Assembly (NCBI GenBank): GCA_019057635.1
Contig: DXJL01000114.1
Span: 1-40,439 of the forward strand
Reading direction: 5' to 3'
Source of the DNA: Candidatus Heimdallarchaeota archaeon
GTDB taxonomy: Archaea > Asgardarchaeota > Heimdallarchaeia > Hodarchaeales > Hodarchaeaceae
DNA length: 40,439 bases
Position 1 is the stretch's first letter, and each line of letters begins with the position of its first letter. Below the pieces are notes generated by a model. That model had not been told where the DNA came from, did no database searches, and worked only from the letters and a program-made list of their open reading frames with translations. A program made the position numbers and the translations under genes. Below are positions 142 through 40,439 of the stretch, one piece after another.

Positions 142-379
142 TCAACAGTTACGAGAGAATTAGAAGGGACTAAAAAGAACTTACCAAGGACGAGTGAAAA
201 ATCAGATTTTTGTTCCTGACTTGAAATTACACTCATCTTGCTTTATAATTGTTTCCAATTTCCACTAATTCGACCTAGTAGCACTTAGGTAGTAACGTTC
301 TTTATTAGTATAATTACTCCACTATTTCTCGGGCCTTTGAGAGAGCAAAATACTAACAAAGACCCCGGAATGAGAAAAG

Positions 380-520
380 GTGGAACCAAGTACTGATAAA
401 AAGGCGGATGATGTGATTCTTCAGAAGGGATTGCACAAGAAAGAAAATCTTCATCCTTTGGAAGTAAAGTATGGACTGGAACCTAAGATCGAGCCTACGG
501 ATAAATGGCGTTGGCATTAG
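380..520 (+). CDS. possible small protein (46 aa)
   Basis: GTG..TAG ORF (M)EPSTDKKADDVILQKGLHKKENLHPLEVKYGLEPKIEPTDKWRWH. TTTATTAG lies at ~301 upstream and a T-rich tract at ~540 downstream. No recognisable domain. Confidence 0.35.
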   Translation: MEPSTDKKADDVILQKGLHKKENLHPLEVKYGLEPKIEPTDKWRWH

Positions 521-698
521 ATCTTTTCCATATCCAAATTCTTTTTTCTTTTCCCTACAAACTATTTTGAATCCCTAATTGGGATTATTAAACGTTAACC
601 AGCCTTCACCCAGAGTTAAGGTAGCGATTAACTTTATTAATAGTCATTTATCCCACATTAGGAAAACAATACTATTCAGATTTAAGGTGCAGTTCGAA

Positions 699-2450: not shown

Positions 2451-2497
2451 CTCAAGGGGGTAGAGGGGAGTTGGAAATCAAACCATGAGGATTTCTT

Positions 2498-3220
2498 ATG
2501 AACCCAGAATCAGTTGAAAGAGCCAAGAGAGAGGCAGCTAAGTTAGCGGTAAAGGAGAATCTACGTGATAACGTAATAATTGGGGTGGGTAGTGGATCAA
2601 CAATTATTTATGTTGTTCGTGAGTTAGCTGCCCTCGTTGCTAAGAACAGCTGGAATATTACTTGTATCCCAACTTCTTATCAAGCGAAGAAGTTAATTAT
2701 AGACGAAGGATTACCACTTGGATCATTAGATCAATTTCCAGTGCTGGACTTAGCAATAGATGGAGCAGATGAAATTACATCAGATTTAAATGTAATCAAG
2801 GGGGGTGGAGGATGCTTAGTTCAGGAGAAAATTGTTGCTGAAAGTGCCAAAAAGCTGATCATCATCGCTGATTGGCAGAAAAATTCCTCCCAATTGGGTG
2901 AGTATTGGGTACAAGGGGTTCCTGTTGAGATAATTCCTGAAGCTCATATCCCACTTGTACAAAAACTTGAGAAAATGGGGGGAAAAGCTAAATTAAGGCA
3001 AGGACTTGCGAAAATTGGCCCTCTAATTACTGATAATGGAAACTTCATATTGGATGTAGATTTTGGAAAAATATCTGATCCAGAAAAGCTCTCTTCACAA
3101 CTAAAAGTCTTAACTGGGGTAGTAGATTCAGGATTATTCATAAATATGGTGAATAAAGCCTATATTGGAGAAAAAAATGGTCTTGTTAAAATTCTAAGTA
3201 AGCAAGGATACAAATCTTGA
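2498..3220 (+). CDS. rpiA: ribose-5-phosphate isomerase A
   Basis: IGVGSGST, DGADEI, IKGGGG, EKIVA and TDNGN signature motifs. Confidence 0.96.
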   Translation: MNPESVERAKREAAKLAVKENLRDNVIIGVGSGSTIIYVVRELAALVAKNSWNITCIPTSYQAKKLIIDEGLPLGSLDQFPVLDLAIDGADEITSDLNVIKGGGGCLVQEKIVAESAKKLIIIADWQKNSSQLGEYWVQGVPVEIIPEAHIPLVQKLEKMGGKAKLRQGLAKIGPLITDNGNFILDVDFGKISDPEKLSSQLKVLTGVVDSGLFINMVNKAYIGEKNGLVKILSKQGYKS

Positions 3221-3229
3221 CTCTCAGCC

Positions 3230-3517
3230 CTAATCGCAACTCTGGAACCACTCATCGTAGCATTCTCGTGCTTTAAGTACATTGCATTTATCTACAGGTA
3301 GGTTACCCTCTTGGCATTTCTTTTTTACAGATAGAATCCAAAGTTCTTCACTTGAAAATCTTTCTAAAATAGCTGAATCAGTTCTTTGAGTTTCATTCTT
3401 TTCCGTATGAACCAAAACTAGATCACCAAACTTTAGATTATAATGAGTATCAATGAAAGCAGTTTCTAACCCTCTACCAACCATTAGCAAATTTCCATAA
3501 TTTCTATTATAGTACAT
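3230..3517 (-). CDS. hypothetical protein, Cys-rich C-terminus
   Basis: 95-aa ORF fills the gap between rpiA and the next gene. No recognised domain. Confidence 0.5.
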   Translation of the reverse strand: MYYNRNYGNLLMVGRGLETAFIDTHYNLKFGDLVLVHTEKNETQRTDSAILERFSSEELWILSVKKKCQEGNLPVDKCNVLKARECYDEWFQSCD

Positions 3518-3587
3518 TTCAGTAAGATTTTAGAGTTAGGTTGTTTTGGAGAATTTGTGAGCTAGTAATATCCAATTTACTCTGTCG

Positions 3588-4340
3588 GTGTTTACCCATT
3601 CCAATTATATAAAAAAGGTTTTAGGCAAACACTACACAAGAGGTAGAAAATTGTATCTCAAAAAAGAACATACGCTTCCCCTAGTGTTTATAGGAACCTT
3701 TCATTTTATTATTTTAACCTTTATAGCCATGATTTTCTATACAGGTGGTACAAGAATTGATGAAACAGCTCAGGGATATAGTTTTTTTACTAATTTCTTT
3801 AGTGATTTAGGTAGGACTGTGGCGTACTCAGGGAAGGGGAATTTAATATCTGTAATCTTGTTTATTGTAGCTCTTGTGGGACTGGGTCTTACCTTTCTTA
3901 GCTACTTTCGATTTATCCCAGAAATTTTTAATTCTACAGAAGAAGAGCAAAAATTGAGTAAGATAGTGGCAAAAATTGGGACTGTTGCAGCAATTGCTTT
4001 TATCGGGATTGCTTTCACCCCCGCAAACTTAGTAACAATTATTCACGATTCATTGGTGGTAACTGGATTCACACTTGTCTCAATAGTATTAGGCATATTA
4101 CTTATACTGACAATAAAAGATCAAAAATTTTCAAAAGTATATGCCATCACATATCTAATACTTATATTGATAGTTCTAGCTTATGGCGGGTTGTTTTTTC
4201 TGATTCCCAAGATAGTGACTTATGAAGACCTGTTGATAAGAGTAAGCATGCAGAAACTAGTTGTCTATAGTCTATTGGCATGTTTTCTGTTCCAAAGCTT
4301 TGGAATTTGGCGTCACAGATATAAATCGAGTGTATCATAG
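3588..4340 (+). CDS. integral membrane protein (DUF998-like)
   Basis: About 6 hydrophobic segments and a GYSF..NFFSDLG motif. The true start is probably slightly downstream. Confidence 0.7.
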   Translation: MFTHSNYIKKVLGKHYTRGRKLYLKKEHTLPLVFIGTFHFIILTFIAMIFYTGGTRIDETAQGYSFFTNFFSDLGRTVAYSGKGNLISVILFIVALVGLGLTFLSYFRFIPEIFNSTEEEQKLSKIVAKIGTVAAIAFIGIAFTPANLVTIIHDSLVVTGFTLVSIVLGILLILTIKDQKFSKVYAITYLILILIVLAYGGLFFLIPKIVTYEDLLIRVSMQKLVVYSLLACFLFQSFGIWRHRYKSSVS

Positions 4341-4450
4341 ACCCGTTTTTGTGATTGCACTGAGTTTCCAATAAAAAGAATTGGGAGATAATAAACTTCC
4401 TTGGGAATAAATTAGTGGACTGAGATTAACTCTTGGAATCGTGAATATTC

Positions 4451-4834
4451 ATGAGCTTTGAACAATTATCGCTATCACAGATAATAAATATCGGATTATT
4501 TGGTTTTGTCTTTGGCTTTTTTGAAACCATTACGAATACCTACTATCTTCTAACTGACAATCTTAAGCTATCTAGACTCCAACATGGTAGAGAACTTCCT
4601 CGTCAAGTTAATGATAGAACAGTTAGACATAAGGTTGTCCAAATGTTAATTCTTGGACTGTTACTCCAAGTGATAGCTGTGATATCTATATTTATCACTC
4701 CTCAACTATTTATAGTGGCAATAGCCTTAATCTTCCTCAATGGCTTAATTGATTATGGTAAATTTCGCCAAAAGGAGACATTACTACTTTGGAGTGTGAT
4801 TTCGCTAATTGCATTAATGCTTTTACTATATTGA
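4451..4834 (+). CDS. hypothetical membrane protein
   Basis: 127 aa with about 4 hydrophobic segments. Confidence 0.7.
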   Translation: MSFEQLSLSQIINIGLFGFVFGFFETITNTYYLLTDNLKLSRLQHGRELPRQVNDRTVRHKVVQMLILGLLLQVIAVISIFITPQLFIVAIALIFLNGLIDYGKFRQKETLLLWSVISLIALMLLLY

Positions 4835-4840
4835 AGATAT

Positions 4841-5689
4841 TTACTTTAGTTCAATTCTCAATTCATGTGCATCAGACCACATTTCGTGAAATTTTGGTTT
4901 TAATTCCTCTGCAAACTTTTTCTGCCATACATATATCCAGGCAAAAAATTCATCAGGTTTGACAGGATTCATTACCTTGACGATTACTTTCTCATTATCA
5001 ATAACATCGAAAGCAGTTGTGCATTTTAAACAATACTTGACAATTTTTCTATCGAAAACATCAAAGAATTTTGCGATTGAGGCCATATATTCCTCTTCTA
5101 AACTTCCTGGTGATACTCCACTTAACAAAATTTTGATAGAAACTCCTCTTGAGTTTAATATTGTAATAGTGTCAATAAGAGTCATAATTATATCTTTTTG
5201 AGGCATTCGAGAAGCGACTCGAAGATTAACGATTGTATTTAGTTCTTTTTTTGTTTCACTTAACTTCTCAATATATTGACCTATGGCCTTTTCGCCGAGA
5301 GCGACACTCCAAAATAAGCTTTCCTCTGGTTTGATGGTGTGTAATTTAGTCAACTTTTCTTCAACTAGAACAGCTTTCTGAGTTAGAGATTCAAGTTCCA
5401 AATTTTTAATTGTTAAGAGATTACTAAGTGTTGACTTAGGATCCTTTGCAACGAATTTCTTAGGACGAGATTCCTGTTTATCAACAAGACCTTTGTCTTC
5501 TAAGGAGCTTAATACATCATAAATTCTCCCAAATGGGATTTTTGATTCAGAAGAAATTTCTTTTGCTGTTCTTATACCAGAGGATAACAAAGATAGGTAA
5601 ACCCGAGATTCATAGCTGGATAAACCAAATACTTCAAGTTCATCAGACGTTATTTCCTGAAAACCATTAGTTGTCATAAAATGATTCAC
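4841..5689 (-). CDS. TrmB-family transcriptional regulator
   Basis: N-terminal FGLSSYESRVYLSLL..TAKEIS..SKIPFGRIYDVLSSLEDKGLV..RPKKF wHTH plus a C-terminal effector domain. Confidence 0.9.
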   Translation of the reverse strand: MNHFMTTNGFQEITSDELEVFGLSSYESRVYLSLLSSGIRTAKEISSESKIPFGRIYDVLSSLEDKGLVDKQESRPKKFVAKDPKSTLSNLLTIKNLELESLTQKAVLVEEKLTKLHTIKPEESLFWSVALGEKAIGQYIEKLSETKKELNTIVNLRVASRMPQKDIIMTLIDTITILNSRGVSIKILLSGVSPGSLEEEYMASIAKFFDVFDRKIVKYCLKCTTAFDVIDNEKVIVKVMNPVKPDEFFAWIYVWQKKFAEELKPKFHEMWSDAHELRIELK

Positions 5690-5726
5690 TTGAGCTTTGA
5701 AGGAAAATTAACCTTTAAATAGTTTT

Positions 5727-5783
5727 CAACATTATGTTGTGGAATTGTGAGTGAAAAATATTTAATATAACCACTATATGTTG
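5727..5783. promoter_or_regulatory. divergent promoter with putative TrmB-family operator sites
   Basis: Perfect palindrome CAACAT-T-ATGTTG (5727-5739) and a 10/13 copy CCACTATATGTTG (5771-5783), adjacent to TATA-like boxes at ~5713-5721 (minus) and ~5761-5769 (plus). Confidence 0.55.
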
Positions 5784-5828
5784 TTTTACTTGAATTACAT
5801 ACAAATTATTACGATAAACGAATTTTAG

Positions 5829-6686
5829 ATGATTTTGATGGATTATAATCAACGATTAGGATTTCTCCTATCATTTGTTGGAGCCGTAATAGGCATCGTA
5901 GGTGGTCTTGGCCTTTTTATATTCACCTATGAACCGTATATCCTTGAAGAAATGACCAATCTTGCTGCTGAATCAGGTTGTGAGGTTATTATTAAGGATT
6001 ATCTCCCAATTATCTTTGATCTCAGTTTCATTGGTGGAATTTTATTTGCTTTAAGTGCATATGGTTTCTACACCAATGAAGAGTGGTCTGTTTCCCTAGC
6101 TGTTGTAGGGAATACTCTTTGTCTGCTAGCGGGTTTTTGGCCCATGATACCTGCAATGCAAATGGGTTTGATACCAGTTTGGGGAATAATTTTCCTCCCA
6201 AATCTTGTTATATTCTTAGTACTTACACATTATGTCGAAAATATTCCATGGATCACAGTATTATTTGCTTTAATGACAGGAATAGCTTATGTAATGTGTT
6301 TCTTGAATGGTGTCGCCAGTACAAATCGTATGGGACTTTATCCACCGAGTTCAGATTCTTATCCTCCCATACCAGATCCTCTTGTCACTTTACATGCAGT
6401 CTTCAAAGGATTACAACGTGTTAACTGGATAGCAGCTATTGGATTTGGTATTGTAACAATTGGAATTCTACGTCGGCCTAATAAGGAATGGGTGCGTATC
6501 CTTGCTTTAGGGACCGCATTACTTGGTATAGTAGCTGGTTATCCTGTAGCAACGGCATCTTCCATCAGTTTTAATAAATTTTCAATGTTTTTTATGGCAC
6601 CAATACTAGCAACCGTCTTGTTAGTAATCCCCCTCTGGCCTACTTTATGGAAGCGTCTTGTAAAGGCACCAAAAGAAACATCGTGA
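5829..6686 (+). CDS. polytopic membrane protein of unknown function
   Basis: 285 aa with about 8 hydrophobic helices, divergent from the TrmB gene. Confidence 0.8.
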   Translation: MILMDYNQRLGFLLSFVGAVIGIVGGLGLFIFTYEPYILEEMTNLAAESGCEVIIKDYLPIIFDLSFIGGILFALSAYGFYTNEEWSVSLAVVGNTLCLLAGFWPMIPAMQMGLIPVWGIIFLPNLVIFLVLTHYVENIPWITVLFALMTGIAYVMCFLNGVASTNRMGLYPPSSDSYPPIPDPLVTLHAVFKGLQRVNWIAAIGFGIVTIGILRRPNKEWVRILALGTALLGIVAGYPVATASSISFNKFSMFFMAPILATVLLVIPLWPTLWKRLVKAPKETS

Positions 6687-6708
6687 TTTCAGATCTTTAT
6701 ATCTAGTG

Positions 6709-6752
6709 GGAAATATGATAGAGAATCTTTATCATATTTCCAATTTTTTTTT
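6709..6752 (+). terminator. hairpin + U-tract terminator
   Basis: GGAAATATGATA (6709-6720) pairs with TATCATATTTCC (6730-6741) and is followed by AA and 9 T. Confidence 0.65.
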
Positions 6753-6828
6753 AACTAAACTGATCTTCTGATCTAATAGAACCTTTTTATAGTAGTAAAT
6801 ACGAGTTAAACTGAAAAATGAATAAGAA

Positions 6829-7737
6829 GTGTGTGTGAATATGGGAATTGTTGAACAAATTGGGTTTAGCTTGATTTCAAAAACTCTCCAGGAGAATCCG
6901 CTTCCTTTTGATACCTATGGAGCAATCTCAGGAGTGTTTGTACTTTTTTTATGGTTAATTACTTTTTTATTCTGTATTATGTTGATTGATGCAAAATTAA
7001 TGACCCGAAAAGCAGCTACAGTTATCTATCTAATTACTTTAATTATTGGGGGTCTTATCATGGCTGCGATTCCCAATCCTCTTCTGCCTATTCAAGAAAT
7101 TTTTCTAGCACTGGCTTCAAGAAATGATCTGTGGTATCTTCTTCCAGTCTTAGTCGTTTTGAGTATTCTATTTGGGACTTCTCTCCTCGTAGGTCGAATT
7201 TTTTGCGGATTTGCCTGTCCCTTAGGCACATTTCAAGAACTACTGTCATTAATCAATTTCAAATCGAATATAAAGCAGCAAAAGAAAAACAAATTTCATT
7301 TCGAAGTTTCAAGGCAAGTTACAAACAAAATACGCTGGTTATTTTTCGGTGTAGTTTTTTTATTTGCCCTTCTTTGGAGTATCCTAATTCTTCCCTTATT
7401 TAACCCTTTTTCTGGTTTCCTATTTTTACATCCTCCCTTTGATTTTACCCTGTTGATTTCATTCTTCGGTTTGATTGTAATTGGAATTGCCAGTATTTTC
7501 TTTTATCGTCCGTATTGCAGGTTTTTATGCCCATTTGGAGCAGGGTCAGATCTTTTAAGTCGATTTGCTAAAAACACATATCAACGGACTGAAGATTGTA
7601 CAGAGTGTGGACTCTGTGAAAAAATATGTCCAACTCAAGAAGCAGCATCTAATAGTAAAAAAGGGGAATGTTATTATTGCAATCGATGTGTAGAGATTTG
7701 TCCTGAAGATGCTATAAAATTGAATTTAGATGGATAA
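6829..7737 (+). CDS. membrane 4Fe-4S binding protein (NapH/MauN/YccM-like)
   Basis: GRIFCGFACPLG and RPYCRFLCPFG (CxxxCP) motifs, two C-terminal CxxCxxCxxxCP ferredoxin motifs, multiple TM helices. Likely start is ATG 6841. Confidence 0.9.
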   Translation: MCVNMGIVEQIGFSLISKTLQENPLPFDTYGAISGVFVLFLWLITFLFCIMLIDAKLMTRKAATVIYLITLIIGGLIMAAIPNPLLPIQEIFLALASRNDLWYLLPVLVVLSILFGTSLLVGRIFCGFACPLGTFQELLSLINFKSNIKQQKKNKFHFEVSRQVTNKIRWLFFGVVFLFALLWSILILPLFNPFSGFLFLHPPFDFTLLISFFGLIVIGIASIFFYRPYCRFLCPFGAGSDLLSRFAKNTYQRTEDCTECGLCEKICPTQEAASNSKKGECYYCNRCVEICPEDAIKLNLDG

Positions 7738-7846
7738 CATAAGGAAAAATCTATTTATTCATATTAAATGTCCGATGTTTCGTCTGGTTTAATAATACAG
7801 ACTTGATTTTTGAGTCCTAATGAGTGTGTAAAAATCGCAGAAAAAA

Positions 7847-8377
7847 TTGTCCCTTCGTTTACTCGTGATACTTCTTCTCATTTCTCCATATTCATCGGTC
7901 AATGAATTGGAAACTCAGGCCAAGATAACCAATAGCTACAATGATATCTCGGTTTCTGAAGCCTACAATTTAATAGATAATATGAGTAGTCTATATATCT
8001 TGGATGTGAGAACTAAAGAAGAATATGCGCTTGGTCATATAACTTATGCTCACTTAATCCCGCATGAGGAAATAGCTTTTAGACAAAACGAACTCCCAGA
8101 AAATAAAACTCAACCCCTTCTTGTGTATTGTAGGTCAGGATCAAGATCTGTGATTGCATCAAATTCATTGATAGATTTAAACTATACTTTGGTTTATAAC
8201 ATGTTAGAAGGGTTCAACGCCTGGAAAAATGCAGGTTATTCATATGAATCATCTTTCATTGATCCTACCGAGGATTTAATCAAATTATTGCTAATTATAA
8301 CGATTATAGGTATTTCAATGGTCTTTTTTGTTATTATAGTAAAAGAATTAATCAAAAGAAGGCAAATTCCTCAATAA
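7847..8377 (+). CDS. membrane-anchored rhodanese-domain protein
   Basis: LDVRTKEEY..GHI, active-site loop YCRSGSRS, LEGFNAW. Signal-peptide-like N-terminus and C-terminal TM with basic tail. Confidence 0.88.
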   Translation: MSLRLLVILLLISPYSSVNELETQAKITNSYNDISVSEAYNLIDNMSSLYILDVRTKEEYALGHITYAHLIPHEEIAFRQNELPENKTQPLLVYCRSGSRSVIASNSLIDLNYTLVYNMLEGFNAWKNAGYSYESSFIDPTEDLIKLLLIITIIGISMVFFVIIVKELIKRRQIPQ

Positions 8378-29950: not shown

Positions 29951-31381
29951 GTGAAGGTGCCCCTAATGAAGAACTATGATGTTATTATGATCGGATCAGG
30001 ATCCGCAAAGAGAATCATTGGTCGATTGATCAATAAGAATCCTGAAATAAGAATTGCTATGATCGATAAAGATGAACCAGGTGGAGTCTGCTCGATAAGA
30101 GGGTGTATTCCCTCTAAACGCTTGATTTATCCAGGAATAGTAATTAGAAATATTGAACATGCAAAAAAACATGGAATTACTGTTAACATTGAAAGTATTG
30201 ATTATAAGACAATAATGGGTAAAGTACAGGATGAGATTCAGTCTAATATTCAAAAAACTAAGTTCAAGTTTAACAATGCCACCCAAGTGGACTATTATCG
30301 TGGTGTAGGAGCTTTTGTAGACAACTATACAATCGAAATTAACAATGAAATAATAAAAGGGGATAAAATTCTATTATGTCTAGGAAGTGATATCTCAATT
30401 CCCCAAATTGTTGATATAGATTCAATAGAGTATCATACAAGCAAGACAATCTTCCTAGAAAATTCACTCCCAGAGCTTCCTAGAAGAATTTTAATTGTAG
30501 GAGGAGGGTATATTGCTGCTGAACTAGGTCATTTTTATTCAGCAATGGGTTCAGAGGTCATTATCATTGGTAGAAACCCTCAATTCCTTCCTCAGGAAGA
30601 ATCCGAAGTATCAAAATTAGCTAGAAAAATATTATCCAATTATCTTACCATTATAACAAATTCAGAAGTAACAAAAGCCCAAGCAACTGCAGATGGTAAG
30701 CAATTAATGGTTAAAAACCGTACATCAGGAGAAACTAAGTCTTATACAGGAGACGAAGTAATAATTGCGACTGGAAGACGATCGAACTCTTATCTCCTTC
30801 AGGCAGAAAAGTCTGGAGTTGAGACAGATAAGAGAGGATGGATTTTAGTTGATGAATATTTGGAGACCTCTCAAAAGAATATATATGCATTTGGAGATGC
30901 AAATGGAAAATTCTTACTTAAACACAAAGCCAATTATGAGACTGAAATTGTCTATAAGAATGCTTTCCTAAATAAACAAGAAAAAGTTGATTATCATGCA
31001 ATTCCTCATGCGGTTTTTACTTACCCAGAAATTGCTGCGGTTGGATTACGCCAAAAAGAAGCAGTAGAGCAATATGGAGAAGAGAACATATTGATTGGGA
31101 GTATTCGATATGAAAATACTGGGTATGGACAGGCTATGGAATCGAAAGATTTCTTTGTGAAAGTAATTACCGAAAAACACACGGCCAAAATTTTAGGTGC
31201 TCATATAATTGGGCCTTATGCAAGTATCTTAATACAAGAGATTATTACTCAACTGTATACAAAAGAGAGAACATTTTCTCCAATATTGAATGGAATGCAT
31301 ATCCACCCCTCGCTAAGCCAAGTAGTGGAAAGGGCGTTCGCACGCTTAAAGCCTGTTAACCAGTATACACCCCCAATATAA
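29951..31381 (+). CDS. class I pyridine nucleotide-disulfide oxidoreductase (dihydrolipoamide dehydrogenase / mycothione reductase-like)
   Basis: IGSGS FAD site, GGVCSIRGCIPSK redox disulfide, GGGYIAAE, C-terminal HIHPSLSQ. Confidence 0.9.
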   Translation: MKVPLMKNYDVIMIGSGSAKRIIGRLINKNPEIRIAMIDKDEPGGVCSIRGCIPSKRLIYPGIVIRNIEHAKKHGITVNIESIDYKTIMGKVQDEIQSNIQKTKFKFNNATQVDYYRGVGAFVDNYTIEINNEIIKGDKILLCLGSDISIPQIVDIDSIEYHTSKTIFLENSLPELPRRILIVGGGYIAAELGHFYSAMGSEVIIIGRNPQFLPQEESEVSKLARKILSNYLTIITNSEVTKAQATADGKQLMVKNRTSGETKSYTGDEVIIATGRRSNSYLLQAEKSGVETDKRGWILVDEYLETSQKNIYAFGDANGKFLLKHKANYETEIVYKNAFLNKQEKVDYHAIPHAVFTYPEIAAVGLRQKEAVEQYGEENILIGSIRYENTGYGQAMESKDFFVKVITEKHTAKILGAHIIGPYASILIQEIITQLYTKERTFSPILNGMHIHPSLSQVVERAFARLKPVNQYTPPI

Positions 31382-31397
31382 AACATTTTCACTTAGA

Positions 31398-32276
31398 GTG
31401 GCTAAAAAAATGATAGATCTATTAGTATATTGGTTCATGTTTCCTATTGCGATAATAGTTGCGTCCATTGCAATGACCCTCGGAATTGGTGGTGCATTGT
31501 TTTTTTCTCCTATATTCATTATCCTTTTTCCAATTGTAGGGGTTCCTACTCTTTCTCCAGCTGATGCATTCGGAGCTGCGTTATTAACTGAAGTGTTTGG
31601 TTTTGCTAGTGGGTTGTTTGGCTATTCTAGAAAAAAATTGATTGACTTCAAGACTGGTATGACAATATTAGCCATTTCTATCCCTGCAGGAATTGTCGGA
31701 GTGGTAGCCAAACGTGTGATCGAAGATTTTGATTTAAATGAAGTCTTGAGTCTTCTTTTTGGGTTAGGACTTTGGATTTTAACAATTTACATAATAATTA
31801 ATAAAAGGAAAGAAAAACATGGTTCACCTGTTCCAAAATCATCTGATCCCAGTAGGGTTATTTTAGATAGTGAAAATAACAAATATGAGTACAAAGTATG
31901 TAATGCTCGGCAGGGAAGAGTATTAAATGGTATAGGTGGTTTTGCTGCTGGATTTATTAGTTTCGGAATAGGAGAGTCTGCAATCACTACTCTACGTGTT
32001 AGATGTGGCTTACCTATGAAAATAGCAGCTGGTACATCAGTATTCATAGTCACTGTAACAGTTCTCATTGCCACTTTAGCTGATACGGTATTAGTTGGAA
32101 TAGAATCCGTTCCATGGGAATTGGTTATATTCACTATCCCTGGAGTATTAATTGGTGGGCAAATAGGACCACGAATAGCAACACGTGTAAGTTCTGAAAC
32201 ATCTGAAAAATTAATGATTGCAATATTCGTCACTTTTGGTTTAATAATGATGCTGAAAGGGTTAGGAATATTTTAG
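31398..32276 (+). CDS. TauE/SafE (TSUP) family sulfur-compound exporter
   Basis: LGIGGALF..P, A.GTS, G.LIGGQIG.R, about 8 TM segments. Confidence 0.88.
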   Translation: MAKKMIDLLVYWFMFPIAIIVASIAMTLGIGGALFFSPIFIILFPIVGVPTLSPADAFGAALLTEVFGFASGLFGYSRKKLIDFKTGMTILAISIPAGIVGVVAKRVIEDFDLNEVLSLLFGLGLWILTIYIIINKRKEKHGSPVPKSSDPSRVILDSENNKYEYKVCNARQGRVLNGIGGFAAGFISFGIGESAITTLRVRCGLPMKIAAGTSVFIVTVTVLIATLADTVLVGIESVPWELVIFTIPGVLIGGQIGPRIATRVSSETSEKLMIAIFVTFGLIMMLKGLGIF

Positions 32277-32451
32277 CTGAACCTCTACCTTCATCGATGC
32301 TTTTGAAATGCTAGTTTTTCCTTTGGAAACATTTTTCGCTTCAATCCCCATTATTAGTGCTTCGATTCTCGAAACTTTCGAGATTCATTGGAAATTGTCT
32401 TTAAAATTTGCTTCTAAGTGTCCAGTATCATACGCTAAATTGGTGACCTTC

Positions 32452-33195
32452 ATGTTACAAAAAAAATATATCAAAATTACTTCTATATTCCTATTTTTCA
32501 GTTTTCTCATCGCTGGAACTCAAATAGCAAGTGCACGAGAAATTAACTTTGATGTACTGCAAGCTCCAGTAGTCGATGGAATCATTAATTCTAGAGAATA
32601 TAATTCATCAAAATCTTTTGGCAATGGAGCATTTGAACTCTCTTGGGAGCTCATAGATGATACAAGTATTTCAATTGGAATTGTAGCACAAACCACAGGA
32701 TGGGTTGCAATCGGTTTTGATCCAACAACCCAAATGCAAGACGCCGACATAATATATGCGTGGGTAGAGGCAAATGGGACGGTGGTAATTATCGATGCTT
32801 TTTCCCTCAATCCAACGGGGGGCAATCATCCACTTGATACCGATCTTGGAGGAACTGATGATATCCTTTCTTATAATGGGACAGAAAATGCAACAAGCAC
32901 TACCATAGAATTCACTCGTCTCCTTTCAACTGGTGACGAAAATTATGATAAAGATATCCCCGTTGAAGGTGAAATTGATATTATTTGGGCTTATGGTGCA
33001 TCAGACAGTTTTAGTGAATACCATGGTGGAGCTAGAGGATCATCAATTATGACAATCGGTACGCCTCAACAGACTACAACTACTACTCAAGAGAATCCCT
33101 CTACTACCACTACGGATAGTGCGCCAGGATTTCAAGGAATTTTTCTGCTAATTAGTCTATTTAGTCTCGCGCTCGTTTACCATGAAAGAAGATAG
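32452..33195 (+). CDS. DOMON-domain cell-surface protein with PGF-CTERM-like anchor
   Basis: GWVAIGF..QMQDADII..IEFTR.L.TGD..IIWAYG..YHG, Thr-rich linker, APGF + TM + basic tail. Start taken as ATG 32452 (signal peptide). Confidence 0.85.
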   Translation: MLQKKYIKITSIFLFFSFLIAGTQIASAREINFDVLQAPVVDGIINSREYNSSKSFGNGAFELSWELIDDTSISIGIVAQTTGWVAIGFDPTTQMQDADIIYAWVEANGTVVIIDAFSLNPTGGNHPLDTDLGGTDDILSYNGTENATSTTIEFTRLLSTGDENYDKDIPVEGEIDIIWAYGASDSFSEYHGGARGSSIMTIGTPQQTTTTTQENPSTTTTDSAPGFQGIFLLISLFSLALVYHERR

Positions 33196-33380
33196 GTTTT
33201 TTACCTACCTCCTTGCTTTTTTCTTTTTTCCAGAAATAGAAAAAAGATACTAGTTGGTCACATTTTCTGTTCGTTAGCAATTCTGAAGCGTGGGTGAAAA
33301 AAAACGGTTATCATCAACAATCCAGTCTGATCAACTTGGTAGTGAATTCTGAATCGGATAAAAAAGAGTGAGTGTAAATA

Positions 33381-33396
33381 AAAAAAGGTTTAAATA
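33381..33396 (+). promoter_or_regulatory. archaeal BRE/TATA promoter
   Basis: AAAAAAGG-TTTAAATA, 32 nt upstream of ATG 33429. Confidence 0.55.
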
Positions 33397-33428
33397 CTCT
33401 GAAAGAAAGGGAACGTTTGGAGTTAAAA

Positions 33429-33485
33429 ATGACAAGAAGGGATCAAGAAATTAATTTTTCACAGTCAAACAACCTTCAAATCTAG
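33429..33485 (+). CDS. possible 18-aa leader/precursor peptide
   Basis: MTRRDQEINFSQSNNLQI*, preceded by GGAG and a TATA box, upstream of the radical SAM gene. Confidence 0.3.
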   Translation: MTRRDQEINFSQSNNLQI

Positions 33486-33584
33486 AAAATACTCCGTCTC
33501 TTTTAGTAATTTAGTTCCTAGAACTTGGAGATACTCCAGCTATTATAATTTTAACTTGCCAGAGGTGCATTATCATGAGGACTT

Positions 33585-35108
33585 ATGAAATTCAACGATA
33601 GCCAAATTACATCAGTTAAGCTTGTTTCAATAAGCTTTCCAGGTCGAGATCTCTCTCTTGCCCCTGTTAGTATTAAAAGTTATATCCTTAAGGACCCTGA
33701 GATTTCAAAGAAATTTTCGGTACATATTTCCCAATATGATATTAATACTTCGAACGAGGATATATTTCAGGACTTAGAGACTGGTAATGAACAGATATAC
33801 GGGTTTACAGTCTATGTGTGGAATTTTGAGAAAATTCTTGCTCTCGCTGAAAAATTGAAAGAAACAAATCCTAAAAGAATTATCGTCTTAGGAGGACCCG
33901 AAGCAAGTGGTCTAGCTGAACAAATTCTAGTGAAATATGAATTTATTGATTTTGTATTCAACGGAGAAGGAGAATCTGCGTTCAAATCGTTTTTAACAAC
34001 TAAAGATTTGAGCACGGTTCCTGGTCTAGTATATCGAAAAAATGGAACAGTTTTAAGTAATCCAGAAGCTCAAATGAAGAATCTTGATGAACTAGCTTTA
34101 CCATATGAAAGTCAAGATTATCGAGAATATTTAGAGAACAGTAAAACACCTGTTAGGGCCGCGATTGAAACTTCTAGAGGATGTCCGTTTTCGTGTGCGT
34201 ACTGTACTTGGGGAGAAAGAAAGATGAAATATTTCAGTCTAGAAAAAATAAAACCAGCTTTCGAATTTTTATTTAATCATCCTAAGGTCAGAACCGTCTA
34301 TATCACGGATTCAAATCCATTTTTACGAAAAGAAAGATCCTTAGAGTTATTGAATTTCTTAATAGAAGCCAATAAACATAAAAAATCGGTTACATTTGAA
34401 GTAAGTCCCGAATACTTGACCAATGAGCGGATAGTTGAACTTATTAGTCAGCTGAACAATGAAGAATTCGCATTTGGGGTGCAATCAACAGCACCTGAAG
34501 TACTAAGTCGGATAAAGAGGAAGTTTAATGCAGAACTGTATCGTAAAAACATTAAATTGATCAGGCAACAGAATAAAGCAGTCGAATTTTGGTTTAGTTT
34601 AATTATTGGATTACCTGGGGACAATTACTCTCAATTCATTGATAGTGTTGACTTTGTGCTAAAATTGAAACCAGAAGGAATCTATTTTCACGAATTACTG
34701 TGTCTACCAGGTAGTGATTTATATAAGAATCCGAGTGAATATGGTATCGAATATATGGAGGAGCCTCCTCATAAATTAATTTCAAATGAGAGTTTTCCAC
34801 ATTTTGAATATAATCAGGCAAAGGAGCTAGCTTTCTTGATCTACTTGCTTCATAGAACATCGAATTTAAAGCAGAGTTTTTATGATCTATTTGAACACCA
34901 AAATGGTCAAGGATTACGGCTCGTAGATTATTATATCCAGTTTCAGACATTTCTCAAAGATCAACTTGATGTTCTGGATGGGAAATCCATCCAAGACCTT
35001 ACTTCATGGTTTTTTGAGCAAACTGCATCTGAATTCTTACAAGATCAACATAAAGTGGAGCAATTGACTCATTTGTACCATTCCTTTGAAACGGGGGTAA
35101 CTAGTTGA
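33585..35108 (+). CDS. cobalamin-binding radical SAM enzyme (class B methyltransferase-like)
   Basis: B12-binding domain (GFTVYVWN, VLGGPEAS, GEGE), ETSRGCPFSCAYC (CxxxCxxC), GVQS, LIIGLPGD. Confidence 0.92.
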   Translation: MKFNDSQITSVKLVSISFPGRDLSLAPVSIKSYILKDPEISKKFSVHISQYDINTSNEDIFQDLETGNEQIYGFTVYVWNFEKILALAEKLKETNPKRIIVLGGPEASGLAEQILVKYEFIDFVFNGEGESAFKSFLTTKDLSTVPGLVYRKNGTVLSNPEAQMKNLDELALPYESQDYREYLENSKTPVRAAIETSRGCPFSCAYCTWGERKMKYFSLEKIKPAFEFLFNHPKVRTVYITDSNPFLRKERSLELLNFLIEANKHKKSVTFEVSPEYLTNERIVELISQLNNEEFAFGVQSTAPEVLSRIKRKFNAELYRKNIKLIRQQNKAVEFWFSLIIGLPGDNYSQFIDSVDFVLKLKPEGIYFHELLCLPGSDLYKNPSEYGIEYMEEPPHKLISNESFPHFEYNQAKELAFLIYLLHRTSNLKQSFYDLFEHQNGQGLRLVDYYIQFQTFLKDQLDVLDGKSIQDLTSWFFEQTASEFLQDQHKVEQLTHLYHSFETGVTS

Positions 35109-36397
35109 GTGAAGACAACAATTCTTTTGAGGATTGCGGATCCTTTGTCGACCAGTTAGGTTCTCCAGTGGTATTTCTCCACGAAATCAATACTTTACCC
35201 AATTTCTCCAAGATTATAACCCAAGTAGAAGGGATTGAGAGGTATGATCGTGCTATATCGATAGCTAGACCCAACGATGTGATTCTTACAAAAACACATC
35301 CTGAGAAATCATATTTGAGGTGGCTCCAAAGCGTAAATCTCGGAACAAACCGAATTATTGTCTTAGATGGTAGTCCAAAAGAAACGTTGCCTGAACGAGT
35401 CTTGAAAAATGGGACAAAATACACTATTCGATCGCATTTAGGAAATCGACAAAAGAAAGCAGTACTGAGTCCATATTTCGGAGGACTCCTAGAACAACAA
35501 GTTTCTACATATTTAGATCTCGAAATGTATTCCTCTCCTCATATAGTAAGAAAATTTGACAGTAAAATCAATTTTAAAAACGCTTGTCGGAAAATTGGTG
35601 TTCCCGTCATTGACGAAGTCATTTTTACCATTAATTCAAAAAGTGAACGGTGTTTAATGGCATTAGTTAAAGTTGTAAAAACAAAACTGGTAGAGACAGG
35701 AAAAGTTATTCTTAGAGGGGAATATGGAGCGTCTGCATCGACTACCTATGTTCTTGACAATCTAACTTCACCGCTTTTGAGGGAACTTATTCACCATAGC
35801 CAACCAGGTGATCGGTATATGGTGGAACCTTTTTATGAAACACAATCGAATCCATCCTCAGTTTGGTTTATTTCTAAAAATAAAAGAATATTACATCTTA
35901 AGACCTCAAATCAGATCCTAGATGAGGAAACTTCCCATATGGGGAATGAATTTCCGGCTTTTTTTGATGAACAGGAAGTTAAAAGACTTTCCTATAAAAT
36001 TGCTCAGCATTTTGTAAGTGAAGGGTACATTGGGCCCTTTGGTCTTGACTATATTGAAAGAAAAGATGGATTTTTCGCTGCTGAATGTAATCCTCGTGTA
36101 ACTGGGTCAATGTATCCATGGGAACTTGTAACTCGTCTTGAGAATCGAGATGGGAGAATAAAAGCGGCCAAATCTGAGAATTTGCATATGCCTCGAAAAG
36201 GTCTGACTTTTACTGATCTTCAACGGATTTGGGATGCTCTCCTTTACGATGGGGAACAGACTACAGGAGTTATTTTACCCTTCAATGTTGGGCCTATTTC
36301 TGACGGTAAAATATCTGTACTCGGGACAGGTTCATCAAGCAAGCAGGTCGAAACACTACTTGATGAAGCCAAAAAGAGCCTTATGGAGTTACAATAA
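35105..36397 (+). CDS. ATP-grasp ligase, PGM1/pre-ATP-grasp-like
   Basis: DSKINFK, LRGEYGASA, MVEPF, GYIGPFGLDY, ECNPRVTGS. 4-bp TTGA overlap with the radical SAM gene. Confidence 0.78.
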   Translation: MSEDNNSFEDCGSFVDQLGSPVVFLHEINTLPNFSKIITQVEGIERYDRAISIARPNDVILTKTHPEKSYLRWLQSVNLGTNRIIVLDGSPKETLPERVLKNGTKYTIRSHLGNRQKKAVLSPYFGGLLEQQVSTYLDLEMYSSPHIVRKFDSKINFKNACRKIGVPVIDEVIFTINSKSERCLMALVKVVKTKLVETGKVILRGEYGASASTTYVLDNLTSPLLRELIHHSQPGDRYMVEPFYETQSNPSSVWFISKNKRILHLKTSNQILDEETSHMGNEFPAFFDEQEVKRLSYKIAQHFVSEGYIGPFGLDYIERKDGFFAAECNPRVTGSMYPWELVTRLENRDGRIKAAKSENLHMPRKGLTFTDLQRIWDALLYDGEQTTGVILPFNVGPISDGKISVLGTGSSSKQVETLLDEAKKSLMELQ

Positions 36398-36630
36398 TCA
36401 TTTTACTGATCCCGATAGAAGAAATATCCATAGACTAAGACAAATCCTATATGCATAATAATTATACTCCATTAAACATTTTAAAAAAATAGTAATCGAT
36501 GTTTTTCCAAATAATTATAAGAAATGCTTGTATCCTCAATAATGTCAATGGTGTTAGAATGATGGATTATGAATTTTGAGGATTATTCCTATCATACTTT
36601 TGACAAAAAAATACCCTATGAGACTTAAAA

Positions 36631-37470
36631 ATGAAAGTATATGATCCTGAACTAAATCCTGGAAAAACCCTTGAAGAAACAATTCAGAATTTTATTAATT
36701 GGATCCGAATGAGTAACCGAAACACAGCAAATGTGCTAAAAAGTGTTAATGAAAAATTACAGGATATCTCAAAAACAGAAGAAAATTTAAAGACCCTTGA
36801 GGCTTCACAACTCACAGAATTAGATAAAATAGATAAAATGTTGACATCAATCTCTCAGATCACTCAACAAAATAATTCCCAAGATGAAACCACAGATTCT
36901 ATTCGAGAATTACAATTCATGATCAATTCCTTATCCACCCAGATGAAGGATATCACTAGTTTCATTACAAATTTTCAAGAAATTATGGAATCTGAATTCA
37001 CTCAGGGCATGAATAAAATTGAAGGTGACATATTAGACGTAAAATCAGATATAGCGTTGATAAATTCTCAATTAAAAATACCACTGGAAACAATTAGCCC
37101 ATCGGGTGGTGGTGAGAAAGATATTAAACAAGAATTGACAAAGATCCGAAAACAAATAAATTGCAAAACAGAACAAGACAAAGCTAGCATTTTAGCAATT
37201 ATTGATGGATTAATTGAAGATCTTTCTCGGGAAATGATCGAAATATCGGGTCTAGATCTCAAAAAACGATTAATCCAGGCACGAACGCAGGTATATGAGC
37301 AAACAGAGGGATTAGCTCCTCGGTTTAGAAAAATGATGGACAATCACATGGATACAATAAATGATGGAACATTGTACTCTGCCGTCGCATTAGCACCGTT
37401 ACTGATTGAAGGAATTCGTCATATTCGAGAAATTTATGCCAGTGCTCCTGTTGGCCAAATTGACATATAA
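36631..37470 (+). CDS. hypothetical coiled-coil protein
   Basis: Long heptad-rich helical sequence, no catalytic motif. Confidence 0.75.
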   Translation: MKVYDPELNPGKTLEETIQNFINWIRMSNRNTANVLKSVNEKLQDISKTEENLKTLEASQLTELDKIDKMLTSISQITQQNNSQDETTDSIRELQFMINSLSTQMKDITSFITNFQEIMESEFTQGMNKIEGDILDVKSDIALINSQLKIPLETISPSGGGEKDIKQELTKIRKQINCKTEQDKASILAIIDGLIEDLSREMIEISGLDLKKRLIQARTQVYEQTEGLAPRFRKMMDNHMDTINDGTLYSAVALAPLLIEGIRHIREIYASAPVGQIDI

Positions 37471-38333: not shown

Positions 38334-39284
38334 ATGGAGAAAATTGTTGTTTCAGCACCAGCGACAATCGCTAATATTGGACCAGGATTTGATGTTTATG
38401 GATTAGCTGTTGATTCACCTGTAGATATCATTAAGGCTAAAAAATTAGATGATAACCCTAAAAAAGTAATTATTAGTAAGACAAATCTTCCAGAACTACC
38501 CCTGGAGGCAGATCAAAATACAGCTGGAATTGCAGCCCAATTCGTCCTGAATAAAGTCAATGCTGACTTTGGAGTAGAGTTTAAACTTGAAAAAGGAATG
38601 GGAATTGGAACTGGCCTAGGAAGTAGCGCTGCCAGTGCCGCTGCTGGTGTTAAAGCCGTTGCCCATTTTCTAAACAATGATGATGAAAATTTAGAGTCAA
38701 TTTTATTAGAAGGATGTATTGTCGCGGAAGAGGCTATCGACGGAGGAATTCATGGAGATAACGTGGCACCATCGCTTTTTGGAGGATTTATTGTGATTCC
38801 TTCATCTAGAAATCCTTTACTCTATACTAAATTTGTATTACCAAAAGAGTTGCGAGTAATCCTTGCTACGCCACCCATTTCTATCTTGACAGCAGATGCT
38901 CGAAGAATTATTCCCAAAGAAATTCCATTACAACATTCAATCCACAGTACTGGCTATGCAGGCCTAGTTATGGCTGGAATTATCAAAAAGGATCTCAAAT
39001 TAATGGGTCAAGGAATTGTTGATACAATTATTGAACCAGTCAGAGCAGGTCTCATCCCCCACTTTTACAAAGTCAAACAAGCAGCTTTAGATGCAGGAGC
39101 TTATGGTTGCTCCATTTCTGGGGCAGGACCAACTGTTTTCGCAATTGCTGATGAAAATTCTGATGTAAAAAATATTGGAAAAGCCATGGCGGAAGCATTT
39201 GAGATGCATAAACAAGTAACGGTTAGAATAGGTTTACCTAATAATGATGGAGCGAAAGTTCTTGCCAGAAGTTTCCACTTTTAA
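38334..39284 (+). CDS. thrB: homoserine kinase
   Basis: APATIANIGPGFD, GLGSSAAS, HGDNVAP, ISGAGPT. Confidence 0.96.
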   Translation: MEKIVVSAPATIANIGPGFDVYGLAVDSPVDIIKAKKLDDNPKKVIISKTNLPELPLEADQNTAGIAAQFVLNKVNADFGVEFKLEKGMGIGTGLGSSAASAAAGVKAVAHFLNNDDENLESILLEGCIVAEEAIDGGIHGDNVAPSLFGGFIVIPSSRNPLLYTKFVLPKELRVILATPPISILTADARRIIPKEIPLQHSIHSTGYAGLVMAGIIKKDLKLMGQGIVDTIIEPVRAGLIPHFYKVKQAALDAGAYGCSISGAGPTVFAIADENSDVKNIGKAMAEAFEMHKQVTVRIGLPNNDGAKVLARSFHF

Positions 39285-40439
39285 ATGTATAACTTGTAAA
39301 AAGACTTATTCTATCGCATCTGGGATCATTAGATGCTCCTGTGGAGGGTTACTCGAAATCAACCATGAGTGGACATTGATTTCACCAAAGAAGAAACTAA
39401 AGCAATATGAACACCATCTTTCAGGAGTTTGGCGATTTAAACCTATAATTCATCCTGATATTCCTGATAAAAATATAGTCATGCGAGGTGAAGGAAACAC
39501 AGGATTATATAACGCTTCGCAACGTATACTTGATTATGCTGGATGTACAAACCTCCTCTTTAAACATGAAGGAGAAAATCCAACAGGATCATTTAAAGAT
39601 AGGGGAATGACGGTGGGAATTTCGGAAGCAAAACATCTAGGTATGCATACAGTAGTTTGTGCTTCAACAGGGAATACATCCGCATCATTGGCCGCATATG
39701 CTTCATATGCAGGTATGAAAGCCACTGTGATTCTACCCAAAGGAAAGGTCGCTTTTGGAAAATTAGCACAAGCATTAGCTTATGGAGCTAAAGTCTATAC
39801 GGTAGAAGGGACATTTGATTTAGCATTGCAACAAGTAATCGATCTAGCCTCCAAAGATGGAAGGTATTTATTAAATAGTATTAACCCCTGGCGAATTGAA
39901 GGTCAAAAAACCATTATTTTTGAACTCCTGGAGAATTTGAGGTGGGAGACACCCGATTGGATAGTGGCTCCAGCAGGAAATTTGGGAAATACCTCCGCGT
40001 TTGGAAAGGCGTTGAAAGAGGCACAAGAATTAGAATTAATCACAGAAATACCACGCCTAGTAGCGGTACAAGCAAAAGGGTCGGAACCATTCGTAAAATA
40101 TTGGGAAAGTGGAAAATATGACCCTGAACCGAATCCTCGAACGATAGCAACAGCAATAAATATTGGTAATCCAGTTAGTCATTCAAAAGCGTTCGAAGCG
40201 TTGAAATTTACTAACGGAGTAGCTACTAGCGTCTCTGATCAATCAATTTTGGATGCGAAGGCATTAATTGACGGTGCGGGAATTGGCTGTGAACCAGCAT
40301 CCGCTTCGACGTTAGCAGGCATAAAGAAGTTAGTAGATGAGGGAACAATCCTAGCGTCAGAGAAAATTGTCGCAATTTTGACTGGACATTTACTGAAAGA
40401 TCCCCAAATCATAATTGATTATCATCAGCATCAGCTTGA
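39244..40439 (+). CDS. thrC: threonine synthase (3' end truncated by the window; absent from ORF track)
   Basis: Manual translation: N-terminal C..C/C.CG knuckle, GEGNT, KHEGENPTGSFKDRG, CASTGNTSASLAAY, NSINPWRIEGQKT, PAGNLGN, CEPASA, LTGHLLKDP. Start is ATG 39244 or TTG 39262, overlapping thrB. Confidence 0.95.
   Translation, partial: MMERKFLPEVSTFKCITCKKTYSIASGIIRCSCGGLLEINHEWTLISPKKKLKQYEHHLSGVWRFKPIIHPDIPDKNIVMRGEGNTGLYNASQRILDYAGCTNLLFKHEGENPTGSFKDRGMTVGISEAKHLGMHTVVCASTGNTSASLAAYASYAGMKATVILPKGKVAFGKLAQALAYGAKVYTVEGTFDLALQQVIDLASKDGRYLLNSINPWRIEGQKTIIFELLENLRWETPDWIVAPAGNLGNTSAFGKALKEAQELELITEIPRLVAVQAKGSEPFVKYWESGKYDPEPNPRTIATAINIGNPVSHSKAFEALKFTNGVATSVSDQSILDAKALIDGAGIGCEPASASTLAGIKKLVDEGTILASEKIVAILTGHLLKDPQIIIDYHQHQL

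Follow-up and report, generated by a model that had tools for sequence, protein, structure and literature searches.

What could a radical S-adenosylmethionine (SAM) enzyme of the cobalamin-dependent kind and an ATP-grasp ligase, encoded by two overlapping genes, accomplish together in an Asgard archaeon, and how might their expression be controlled? This question is raised by contig DXJL01000114.1 of Candidatus Heimdallarchaeota archaeon (Hodarchaeales; assembly GCA_019057635.1), which was analysed from position 1 to 40,439 (this whole stretch is called the window in the following; the pair and its leader lie on its forward strand). The radical SAM gene (33585..35108; 507 amino acids, ATG start; its product is called the methylase here, after its predicted activity) is followed by the ligase gene (35105..36397; 430 amino acids, TTG start). 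The genes share the four bases TTGA at 35105, i.e., the start codon TTG of the ligase overlaps the stop codon TGA of the methylase, and they are separated from the next open reading frames (ORFs) by gaps of 389 bp upstream (33196–33584) and 233 bp downstream (36398–36630). This arrangement had been described correctly in an original prediction, made from the sequence alone, which proposed a minimal pair of enzymes making a methylated building block for a peptide. The reading favoured here, on which our belief and our doubt are about evenly balanced, is that of a two-enzyme cassette which acts on a small amino-acid-derived molecule, is patchily inherited and is gated by leader peptides.

The two genes are not chance ORFs, since orthologs of both recur side by side elsewhere. 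Among 12 loci of the ligase family in species genomes, the methylase gene was located directly upstream on the same strand in seven; three loci were truncated within the ligase gene where the contig ends, and two, from Woesearchaeota, were without methylase. Close metagenome loci (n = 18) contained the pair in 10 cases and lacked the methylase in two, and six were not assessable. A survey of 400 Asgard genomes yielded the ligase in 10, a methylase ortholog (E ≤ 1e-40) in nine and both in eight, always adjacent, and thus the linkage in other genomes which the original prediction called for was confirmed. In genome G397 the ligase gene is split across two contigs. Three Asgard genomes showed a single gene of the pair; two of these loci (G068, G350) are cut by a contig end, and in the third (G064) the methylase gene is followed by a run of Ns. 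This run begins straight after the methylase gene in a single-contig assembly (locus L076; G064:C1, ~685700) and is followed by an unrelated flavoprotein-like frame; it is likely a scaffolding join which hides the ligase gene. No methylase paralog was detected at E ≤ 1e-40 in the other 391 Asgard genomes.

Within the genus, the ligase was found in 4 of the 21 other genomes, and nearly complete genomes are among those without it. Those of the 60 close ligase clusters which bear names all belong to Hodarchaeales, Heimdallarchaeota, Thorarchaeota or unclassified archaea. Homologs of the methylase comprise Asgard orthologs with 49–100% identity, a small bacterial group (Planctomycetes, CSSED10-310) with 38–42%, and then sequences with about 30%. 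The neighbours of the pair, already judged unrelated in the window, differ at every locus examined, and no conserved flanking genes for biosynthesis, export, precursors or proteases were found. Because of the patchy distribution, the differing flanks and the spread of the methylase homologs, the pair is regarded as a self-contained accessory cassette, which has probably been spread horizontally. A literature search on cobalamin-dependent radical SAM and ATP-grasp enzymes in Asgard and other archaea yielded no paper on this pair; it is a pair of subfamilies without a characterised member, though both superfamilies are well studied.

The first enzyme carries the domains which had been recognised from the sequence alone. 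Its B12-binding Rossmann domain (33723..33989; residues 47–135, Pfam PF02310) scored 49.4 bits at a cut-off of 32.1 (E 5e-13), and the Radical_SAM domain (PF04055) extends over residues 194–358 (E 4.6e-23). The CxxxCxxC motif of the [4Fe-4S] cluster (34182..34205; C200, C204 and C207) is invariant across 22 methylase orthologs. Among the 25 NCBIfam families listed, none reached its curated cut-off: the top family was NF033712, the KedN5 C-methyltransferase (145.4 bits, cut-off 700), and weak matches were obtained to C-methyltransferases of ribosomally synthesised and post-translationally modified peptides (RiPPs), namely TIGR03975 (98.7 bits, cut-off 281.85) and ApyD (61.8 bits). By these scores the methylase would constitute a separate, unnamed subfamily.

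The best solved relatives in a PDB sequence search were TokK (8.5e-28) and CysS (6.4e-25). An AlphaFold model of the methylase, obtained from 22 orthologs with a predicted local distance difference test (pLDDT) of 90.7, matched CysS best (Z 32.1, 487 aligned residues, root-mean-square deviation (rmsd) 3.0), followed by TokK (Z 26.8, 490 aligned residues) and, as next structures, by the protein-glutamine methylase MgmA (Z 24.8), AprD4 (Z 23.6), OxsB (Z 23.2) and TsrM. The B12-binding region of the model aligns with those of CysS and TokK. An N-terminal cobalamin Rossmann domain, a CxxxCxxC radical SAM core and a helical C-terminal part are common to the methylase and to CysS (cystobactamid) and TokK/ThnK (carbapenem). 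On the other hand, the methylase is only 20–21% identical to these enzymes, has 507 residues compared to 645–681, is archaeal and stands outside antibiotic clusters, and its partner is an ATP-grasp ligase rather than carrier-protein chemistry. CysS and TokK add methyl groups stepwise at sp3 carbons. According to the TokK preprint, the pantetheine handle of the TokK substrate sits in a tunnel which lies between the cobalamin and C-terminal domains.

For the second enzyme, the ATP-grasp assignment is firm, and its nearest kin differ somewhat from what had been proposed. Residues 248–335 matched ATP-grasp_3 (PF02655; 27.5 bits, cut-off 23.2). The motifs G.FGLD (G310-P-F-G-L-D315) and ECNPR (E327-C-N-P-R331; 36083..36097), noted originally, are present, and G310, G313, D315 and E327 to R331 are invariant across 22 ligase homologs; the ECNPR motif presumably binds Mg and phosphate, as in ATP-grasp enzymes. 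The candidate pre-ATP-grasp-like N-terminal region (35246..35470; residues 48–122) had a Pfam score below the cut-off (PreAtp-grasp, PF18604; 20.5 bits compared to 27.5), and the structural alignment begins at residue 20. Precomputed matches to PF18604 existed for 9 of 60 homolog clusters; in a sample of 22 more distant relatives, PreAtp-grasp was present in 13 and ATP-grasp_3 in 12. The ligase gave no Pfam match at E ≤ 1 to the PGM1 C-terminal family, but the structural alignment extends to residue 426.

A search of the PDB with the single ligase sequence gave nothing significant (best E 0.067). With the ligase model (pLDDT 90.0), Foldseek returned first a Streptomyces ATP-grasp peptide ligase (8ynd; E 3e-21), alongside BesA, PGM1 and LdmS. 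VIA-align gave Z scores of 35.0 for BesA (397 aligned residues), 33.2 for 8ynd, 32.7 for PGM1 (3wvq_A; rmsd 3.1, 390 aligned residues) and 30.8 for LdmS, and then a fall to the next clade, PurK, with Z 23.8. The ligase thus does not group with ATP-grasp enzymes of primary metabolism; as judged from the model, it belongs to the BesA/PGM1/LdmS clade, well above PurK, and in this sense the designation as PGM1-like was appropriate. It was less so in terms of sequence, since a profile of 22 ligase homologs found BesA (4.4e-6) and LdmS (1.6e-5) best and PGM1 only at 0.19, which would place the ligase nearer the dipeptide-forming enzymes than PGM1. The LdmS family NF047900 itself scored 28.4 bits at a cut-off of 475. 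An exhaustive profile search collected 1802 cluster representatives at E ≤ 0.001, and 132 at E ≤ 1e-30.

BesA (L-propargylglycine–L-glutamate ligase) and LdmS (L-aspartate–L-methionine ligase) each join two amino acids and appear to have the same build of pre-ATP-grasp and ATP-grasp parts as the ligase of the window, which differs from them by an identity of 14–15% and by having another partner enzyme. The abstract on LdmS describes a dipeptide ligase whose operon contains Met/Cys regulatory elements; a tie to amino-acid regulation would be a further likeness. Two observations were made on other ligases. In Woesearchaeota (L011, 3554–7266; L012, 3534–7335), the place of the radical SAM gene before ligases with 37–38% identity is taken by the genes of a NOG1-type GTPase and of a DAO-family FAD oxidoreductase, and, judging from these surroundings, this ligase family would have the GTPase and flavoprotein as another partner. 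Protein P0101 (1103 amino acids), from the sample of 22 more distant relatives, is a natural fusion of a glutamine-amidotransferase/asparagine-synthase with a PreATP-grasp/ATP-grasp ligase of the same superfamily.

The 389-bp gap upstream of the pair, at first taken as a mere sign of isolation, turned out to hold a conserved leader with translated-looking tiny ORFs. A conserved block became visible on aligning the upstream gaps of related loci, and when all small ORFs of the flanks were compared with one another, in search of a conserved precursor, the sole match beyond near-identical relatives was upstream ORF 1 (uORF1; 33429..33485), which consists of 18 codons and a stop codon and encodes the peptide MTRRDQEINFSQSNNLQI. 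A GGAG ribosome-binding site (33419..33422) is located 6 nt before its ATG, and a TATA-like box, TTTAAA (33389..33394), about 40 nt before uORF1. Since a TTTAAA or TTTATA box is found at the same distance in L001–L005, and in view of the geometry of archaeal promoters, this box is considered a putative promoter. The loci with this kind of leader, termed type 1 here, number 12 (the window, L001–L005, L076, L083–L086 and L096; several are closely related). GGAG at equal spacing is present in 11 of them and GTGAG in L003. The core M-x-R-R-D-x-Q/E-I of uORF1 occurs in all 12, with ATG as start codon in nine and GTG in three; in the whole 3.19-Mb genome of the window, the pattern has a single occurrence, at this locus.

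Following uORF1, a CTCC sequence with a T-rich tract (33492..33504) was noted; none of the aligned leaders departs from CTC, and eight of nine have C as the next base; RNAalifold pairs the CTCC site, weakly, with the GGAG of uORF1. A second ribosome-binding site, AGAGGTG (33561..33567; GGAGGTG or AGAGGTG is conserved in type-1 leaders), precedes uORF2 by 7 nt and the ATG of the methylase by 17 nt. uORF2 (33575..33601; eight codons and a stop codon, peptide MRTYEIQR) overlaps the methylase ATG (33585) in another frame, and its core M-R-x-x-Q/E-I was present, 135–155 nt past uORF1, in 12 of 12 type-1 loci. A conserved small ORF near the pair had been envisaged from the start, and two were found. 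Twin uORFs with ribosome-binding sites are present in 12 of the 18 loci which have enough upstream DNA. Possessing a start codon and a ribosome-binding site each, uORF1 and uORF2 qualify as short leader ORFs and are predicted to be translated.

The peptides of type-1 loci have 7–18 residues, and their tails after the motif vary freely, even between close relatives. In loci of the Thorarchaeota type, the variable residue is identical in uORF1 and uORF2 (Cys/Cys or Tyr/Tyr), and its third base mostly differs: TGC/TGT was found in four of six Cys loci (TGC twice in L086) and TAC/TAT in L085. The same residue with differing third bases would fit selection on the peptide or on the codon; it could also have resulted from repeat homogenisation. 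An Rfam scan of 32900–36900 gave no match at E ≤ 1, and therefore no known riboswitch or T-box was recognised in the leader.

A different kind of leader was found in deeper lineages. ORFs ending in runs of at least four Ile codons, within 200 nt upstream of the methylase gene, are present at L006, L010, L075 and L089: 12 of 22 residues are Ile in L006, seven ATT codons follow consecutively in L010, and L075 and L089 have two such ORFs each. The background of runs of at least four Ile codons in the organism's own genome is 0.039 per kb per strand. L088, with 64% GC, has its only 3-codon Ile run at the same position, and in genome G081 a pure ATT run is present only at the leader of the pair. 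Other runs of six Ile in G081 and G397 were located mostly outside small ORFs or inside membrane-protein genes, which does not indicate an Ile-run regulon in these two genomes. A hairpin pairs the ORF start with the Ile-rich end in L075 and L006, and L075 and L010 have, past the Ile run, a hairpin followed by six U residues (z −1.45 and −2.35). Between L075 and L089, the first Ile-rich ORF differs by an in-frame indel of two codons. Five ligase loci without methylase had no such leader. In the methylase tree, leaders with the RRDxQI motif occur in two well-supported clades and Ile-run leaders on at least four other, deep branches, one of which is sister to the Thorarchaeota clade. Because of these positions in the tree, the data suggest that the Ile-run leader is the older form.

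How would such a cassette work? The radical SAM enzyme would be a cobalamin C-methyltransferase of the CysS/TokK type; enzymes of this type methylate unactivated sp3 carbons of handle-bearing substrates. The ligase, being of the BesA/PGM1/LdmS type, would join a carboxylate and an amino group via an acyl-phosphate. The two genes are probably co-transcribed and translationally coupled, and so the enzymes would most likely act in succession on the same substrate, with the ligase making or using an amide-linked partner and the methylase alkylating a side chain. A small molecule is the more probable substrate, because CysS and TokK use handle-bearing small molecules, BesA and LdmS use amino acids, and accessory RiPP genes are absent. 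Ribosomes would read the leader first, and the leader would gate expression; such a regulatory role is suggested by the position of uORF1 at the predicted transcript start, by the overlap of uORF2 with the methylase start codon, by the Ile-codon runs with hairpin and U-run in relatives, and by the wholly different leader peptides which accompany orthologous enzymes. The output would probably be tied to the status of isoleucyl-tRNA or isoleucine, since Ile-codon runs, some with hairpin and U-run, are found in the deeper branches. From the initial proposal, the enzyme classes and their linkage can be retained, and a methylated building block may possibly be joined to a peptide; but as the leader ORFs are Ile-codon runs in related loci, the leader points to amino-acid-linked regulation and not to a free-standing antibiotic module.

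The leader resembles the bacterial attenuators of the ilv, thr, his and trp operons in that a short ORF comes first on the transcript, and in that relatives possess runs of codons for a single amino acid, followed by a hairpin and a U-run. It differs from them in its archaeal host, and in that the leader of the window has a conserved peptide motif instead of a codon run; furthermore, the genes which it would control do not form any known biosynthetic operon. We know of no archaeal case of leader-peptide attenuation, and the papers listed in a literature search on this subject dealt with bacterial systems or with other topics.

The metabolic background of the host is relevant in this context. 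In the organism's own genome (G000), which is 91.6% complete, neither IlvC nor IlvD was found, and three acetolactate-synthase-like genes were all below the cut-off for acetohydroxyacid synthase (AHAS); the host is therefore probably unable to make branched-chain amino acids, as far as gene content can tell. It has this trait in common with the entire lineages that contain the pair, and the trait is not peculiar to pair-bearing genomes. A threonine dehydratase of the IlvA type (TIGR01127) scored above its cut-off (C190), and the 2-oxobutyrate which it yields has no obvious ilv route onward. In 22 congeners, the own genome included, IlvA was above the cut-off in 14 and CimA (TIGR00977) in none. 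CimA and IlvA were considered as markers and were discarded, since neither separates pair-bearing from pair-less genomes.

Several points weigh against the favoured reading. The leader of the window has only two Ile codons among the 18 of uORF1 and one among the eight of uORF2; its folding is no better than that of shuffled sequence (z 0.20 and −0.59), and for the type-1 leaders a weak consensus structure was predicted (−2.9 kcal/mol, with one compensatory pair). The sequence AGAAGGGAT is invariant at the nucleotide level and could be an RNA or DNA site rather than part of a peptide. In the deeper lineages, L090 is without an Ile run, and the run of L010 closes an ORF of 148 codons, not a tiny one. 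The absence of IlvD was examined as a signal specific for the pair and was rejected: one of 11 pair- or methylase-bearing genomes has IlvD, compared to 181 of 400 in the phylum, but the families concerned are poor in IlvD anyway (f1 6/21, f7 0/12, three further families 9/89). Class B relatives which do not methylate, OxsB and AprD4, also match the methylase model (Z ~23), and predicted folds would indicate a type of chemistry, not a function. Finally, control could act in either direction, with the genes on at scarce or at plentiful isoleucine: in classical attenuation the operon is on when isoleucyl-tRNA is scarce, and in pyrBI-like coupling the opposite holds.

In an alternative reading, the tiny ORFs, with RRDxQI here or rich in Ile elsewhere, would be substrates of the enzymes in a minimal RiPP-like system, the radical SAM enzyme C-methylating residues such as Ile in the manner of polytheonamide-type methylases and the PGM1-like ligase capping or extending the peptide. 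We consider this unlikely, although it is the best of the alternatives. The short ORFs are situated directly upstream in the same orientation and have ribosome-binding sites; the weak matches to TIGR03975 and ApyD and the Z score of 24.8 with MgmA speak for it as well, and the two-codon indel between L075 and L089 keeps the frame. Ligation of an acid onto small ribosomal peptides by PGM1 is reported in a survey of graspetides (PMC8939145). However, enzymes with about 50–60% identity would then need unrelated peptides, hydrophilic RRDxQI on the one hand and poly-Ile on the other. Peptides of 7–12 residues are very short, and their tails past the motif are freely variable; we know of no RiPP precursors as short as these. 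No conserved gene for a protease, an exporter or a recognition domain is present nearby, no PqqD-like or other extra Pfam domain was detected in either enzyme, and the methylase model resembles CysS and TokK, which act on small molecules, more than it resembles MgmA. The overlap of uORF2 with the methylase start codon is typical of regulation, and the hairpin and U-run past the Ile runs fit attenuation.

It is quite unlikely that the pair represents a free-standing module similar to those for pheganomycin or ketomemicin, in which a methylated non-proteinogenic acid would be joined to a peptide encoded elsewhere, the leader being without a special role. The ligase matches the fold of PGM1, the pheganomycin peptide ligase, and of 8ynd across its whole chain, the distribution is patchy as for accessory functions (10 of 400 Asgard genomes; within the genus, 4 of 21 congeners), and CysS and TokK are enzymes of antibiotic pathways. 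Yet the complete synthesis of a non-proteinogenic acid is beyond two genes, and their surroundings contain no other conserved pathway genes; there is neither a cluster for an unusual acid (guanidino or other) nor a recognisable precursor gene of the PGM1 type, whose product reportedly has 38 residues. By profile, the ligase is more similar to the dipeptide ligases BesA and LdmS than to PGM1, and the conserved leader with its Ile-codon runs would be left unexplained.

A more specific form of the gated cassette, which we regard as improbable, would make it a non-canonical route for the supply of isoleucine in Asgard archaea lacking ilv genes, switched on by ribosome stalling at the Ile codons of the leader. 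Valine or a similar C5 amino acid would be held by the BesA-like ligase in an amide linkage, and the CysS/TokK-like methylase would extend a side-chain methyl group to ethyl, giving the isoleucine skeleton. This idea is based on the Ile-codon leaders on at least four deep branches, on the nearest methylase structures, which are methyl-to-ethyl chain extenders, and on the lack of IlvC, IlvD and an AHAS above cut-off in the organism's own genome. Very improbable, in turn, is a modification of macromolecules, by which a ribosomal or other protein, or a tRNA, would first be methylated by the pair and then receive an amino acid in a translation-stress response: protein extension is known from some ATP-grasp enzymes and methylation of protein residues from some B12 radical SAM enzymes (compare the match to MgmA, Z 24.8), and the leader would sense translation, but all the enzymes with structures nearest to the ligase use small molecules or short peptides, the patchiness within the genus speaks against a core role in translation, and no target gene is linked.

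As for the surroundings of the pair, the upstream neighbours (29951–33195) encode a pyridine-nucleotide-disulphide oxidoreductase, a TauE/SafE-type exporter and a DOMON-domain protein whose tail is Thr-rich and whose C-terminal end is hydrophobic. The next gene downstream (36631–37470) is an ORF of 279 amino acids, rich in Glu, Gln, Ile and Lys, without a Pfam family. At a distance of 2 kb past the pair (38334–40437), a gene for a GHMP-kinase (homoserine-kinase-like) shares about 40 bases with one for a PALP enzyme (threonine-synthase-like); the PALP gene runs past the end of the window, and these surroundings are not kept at other loci. A TnpB/Cas12f-like gene (OrfB_IS605 and a Cas12f1-like TNB domain) was noted in the heimdallarchaeotal locus L010 (8770–10296), 1.5 kb downstream of the pair. 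Beside the cassette of L003 (3626–4305), the end of an ORF of 80 amino acids shares 4 bases with the PIN-domain gene behind it; together the two look like a toxin-antitoxin module. Alphaproteobacterial relatives of the ligase (24–28% identity) were rejected for comparison, since they belong to a different system: in Kiloniella and Rhodospirillales (L022, L014; ~170–8300), the distant ligases belong to a conserved cluster whose other products are a class-III aminotransferase, a CN-hydrolase, an Orn/Lys/Arg decarboxylase and a protein resembling AAT (C45) acyltransferases; this cluster looks polyamine-related.

The locus thus presents a compact two-gene system which would likely couple amide ligation to the methylation of an unactivated carbon by radical chemistry. 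More surprising is the leader. If our interpretation is true, it would bring ribosome-mediated attenuation into the Archaea and would tie a B12 radical enzyme to the amino-acid status in organisms which apparently are unable to make branched-chain amino acids; should the isoleucine route exist, its leader would be the first leader-peptide attenuator described in Archaea. Should the peptides of the leader instead be substrates, they would count among the shortest known ribosomal precursors. A regulatory leader and substrate peptides would both be new biology.

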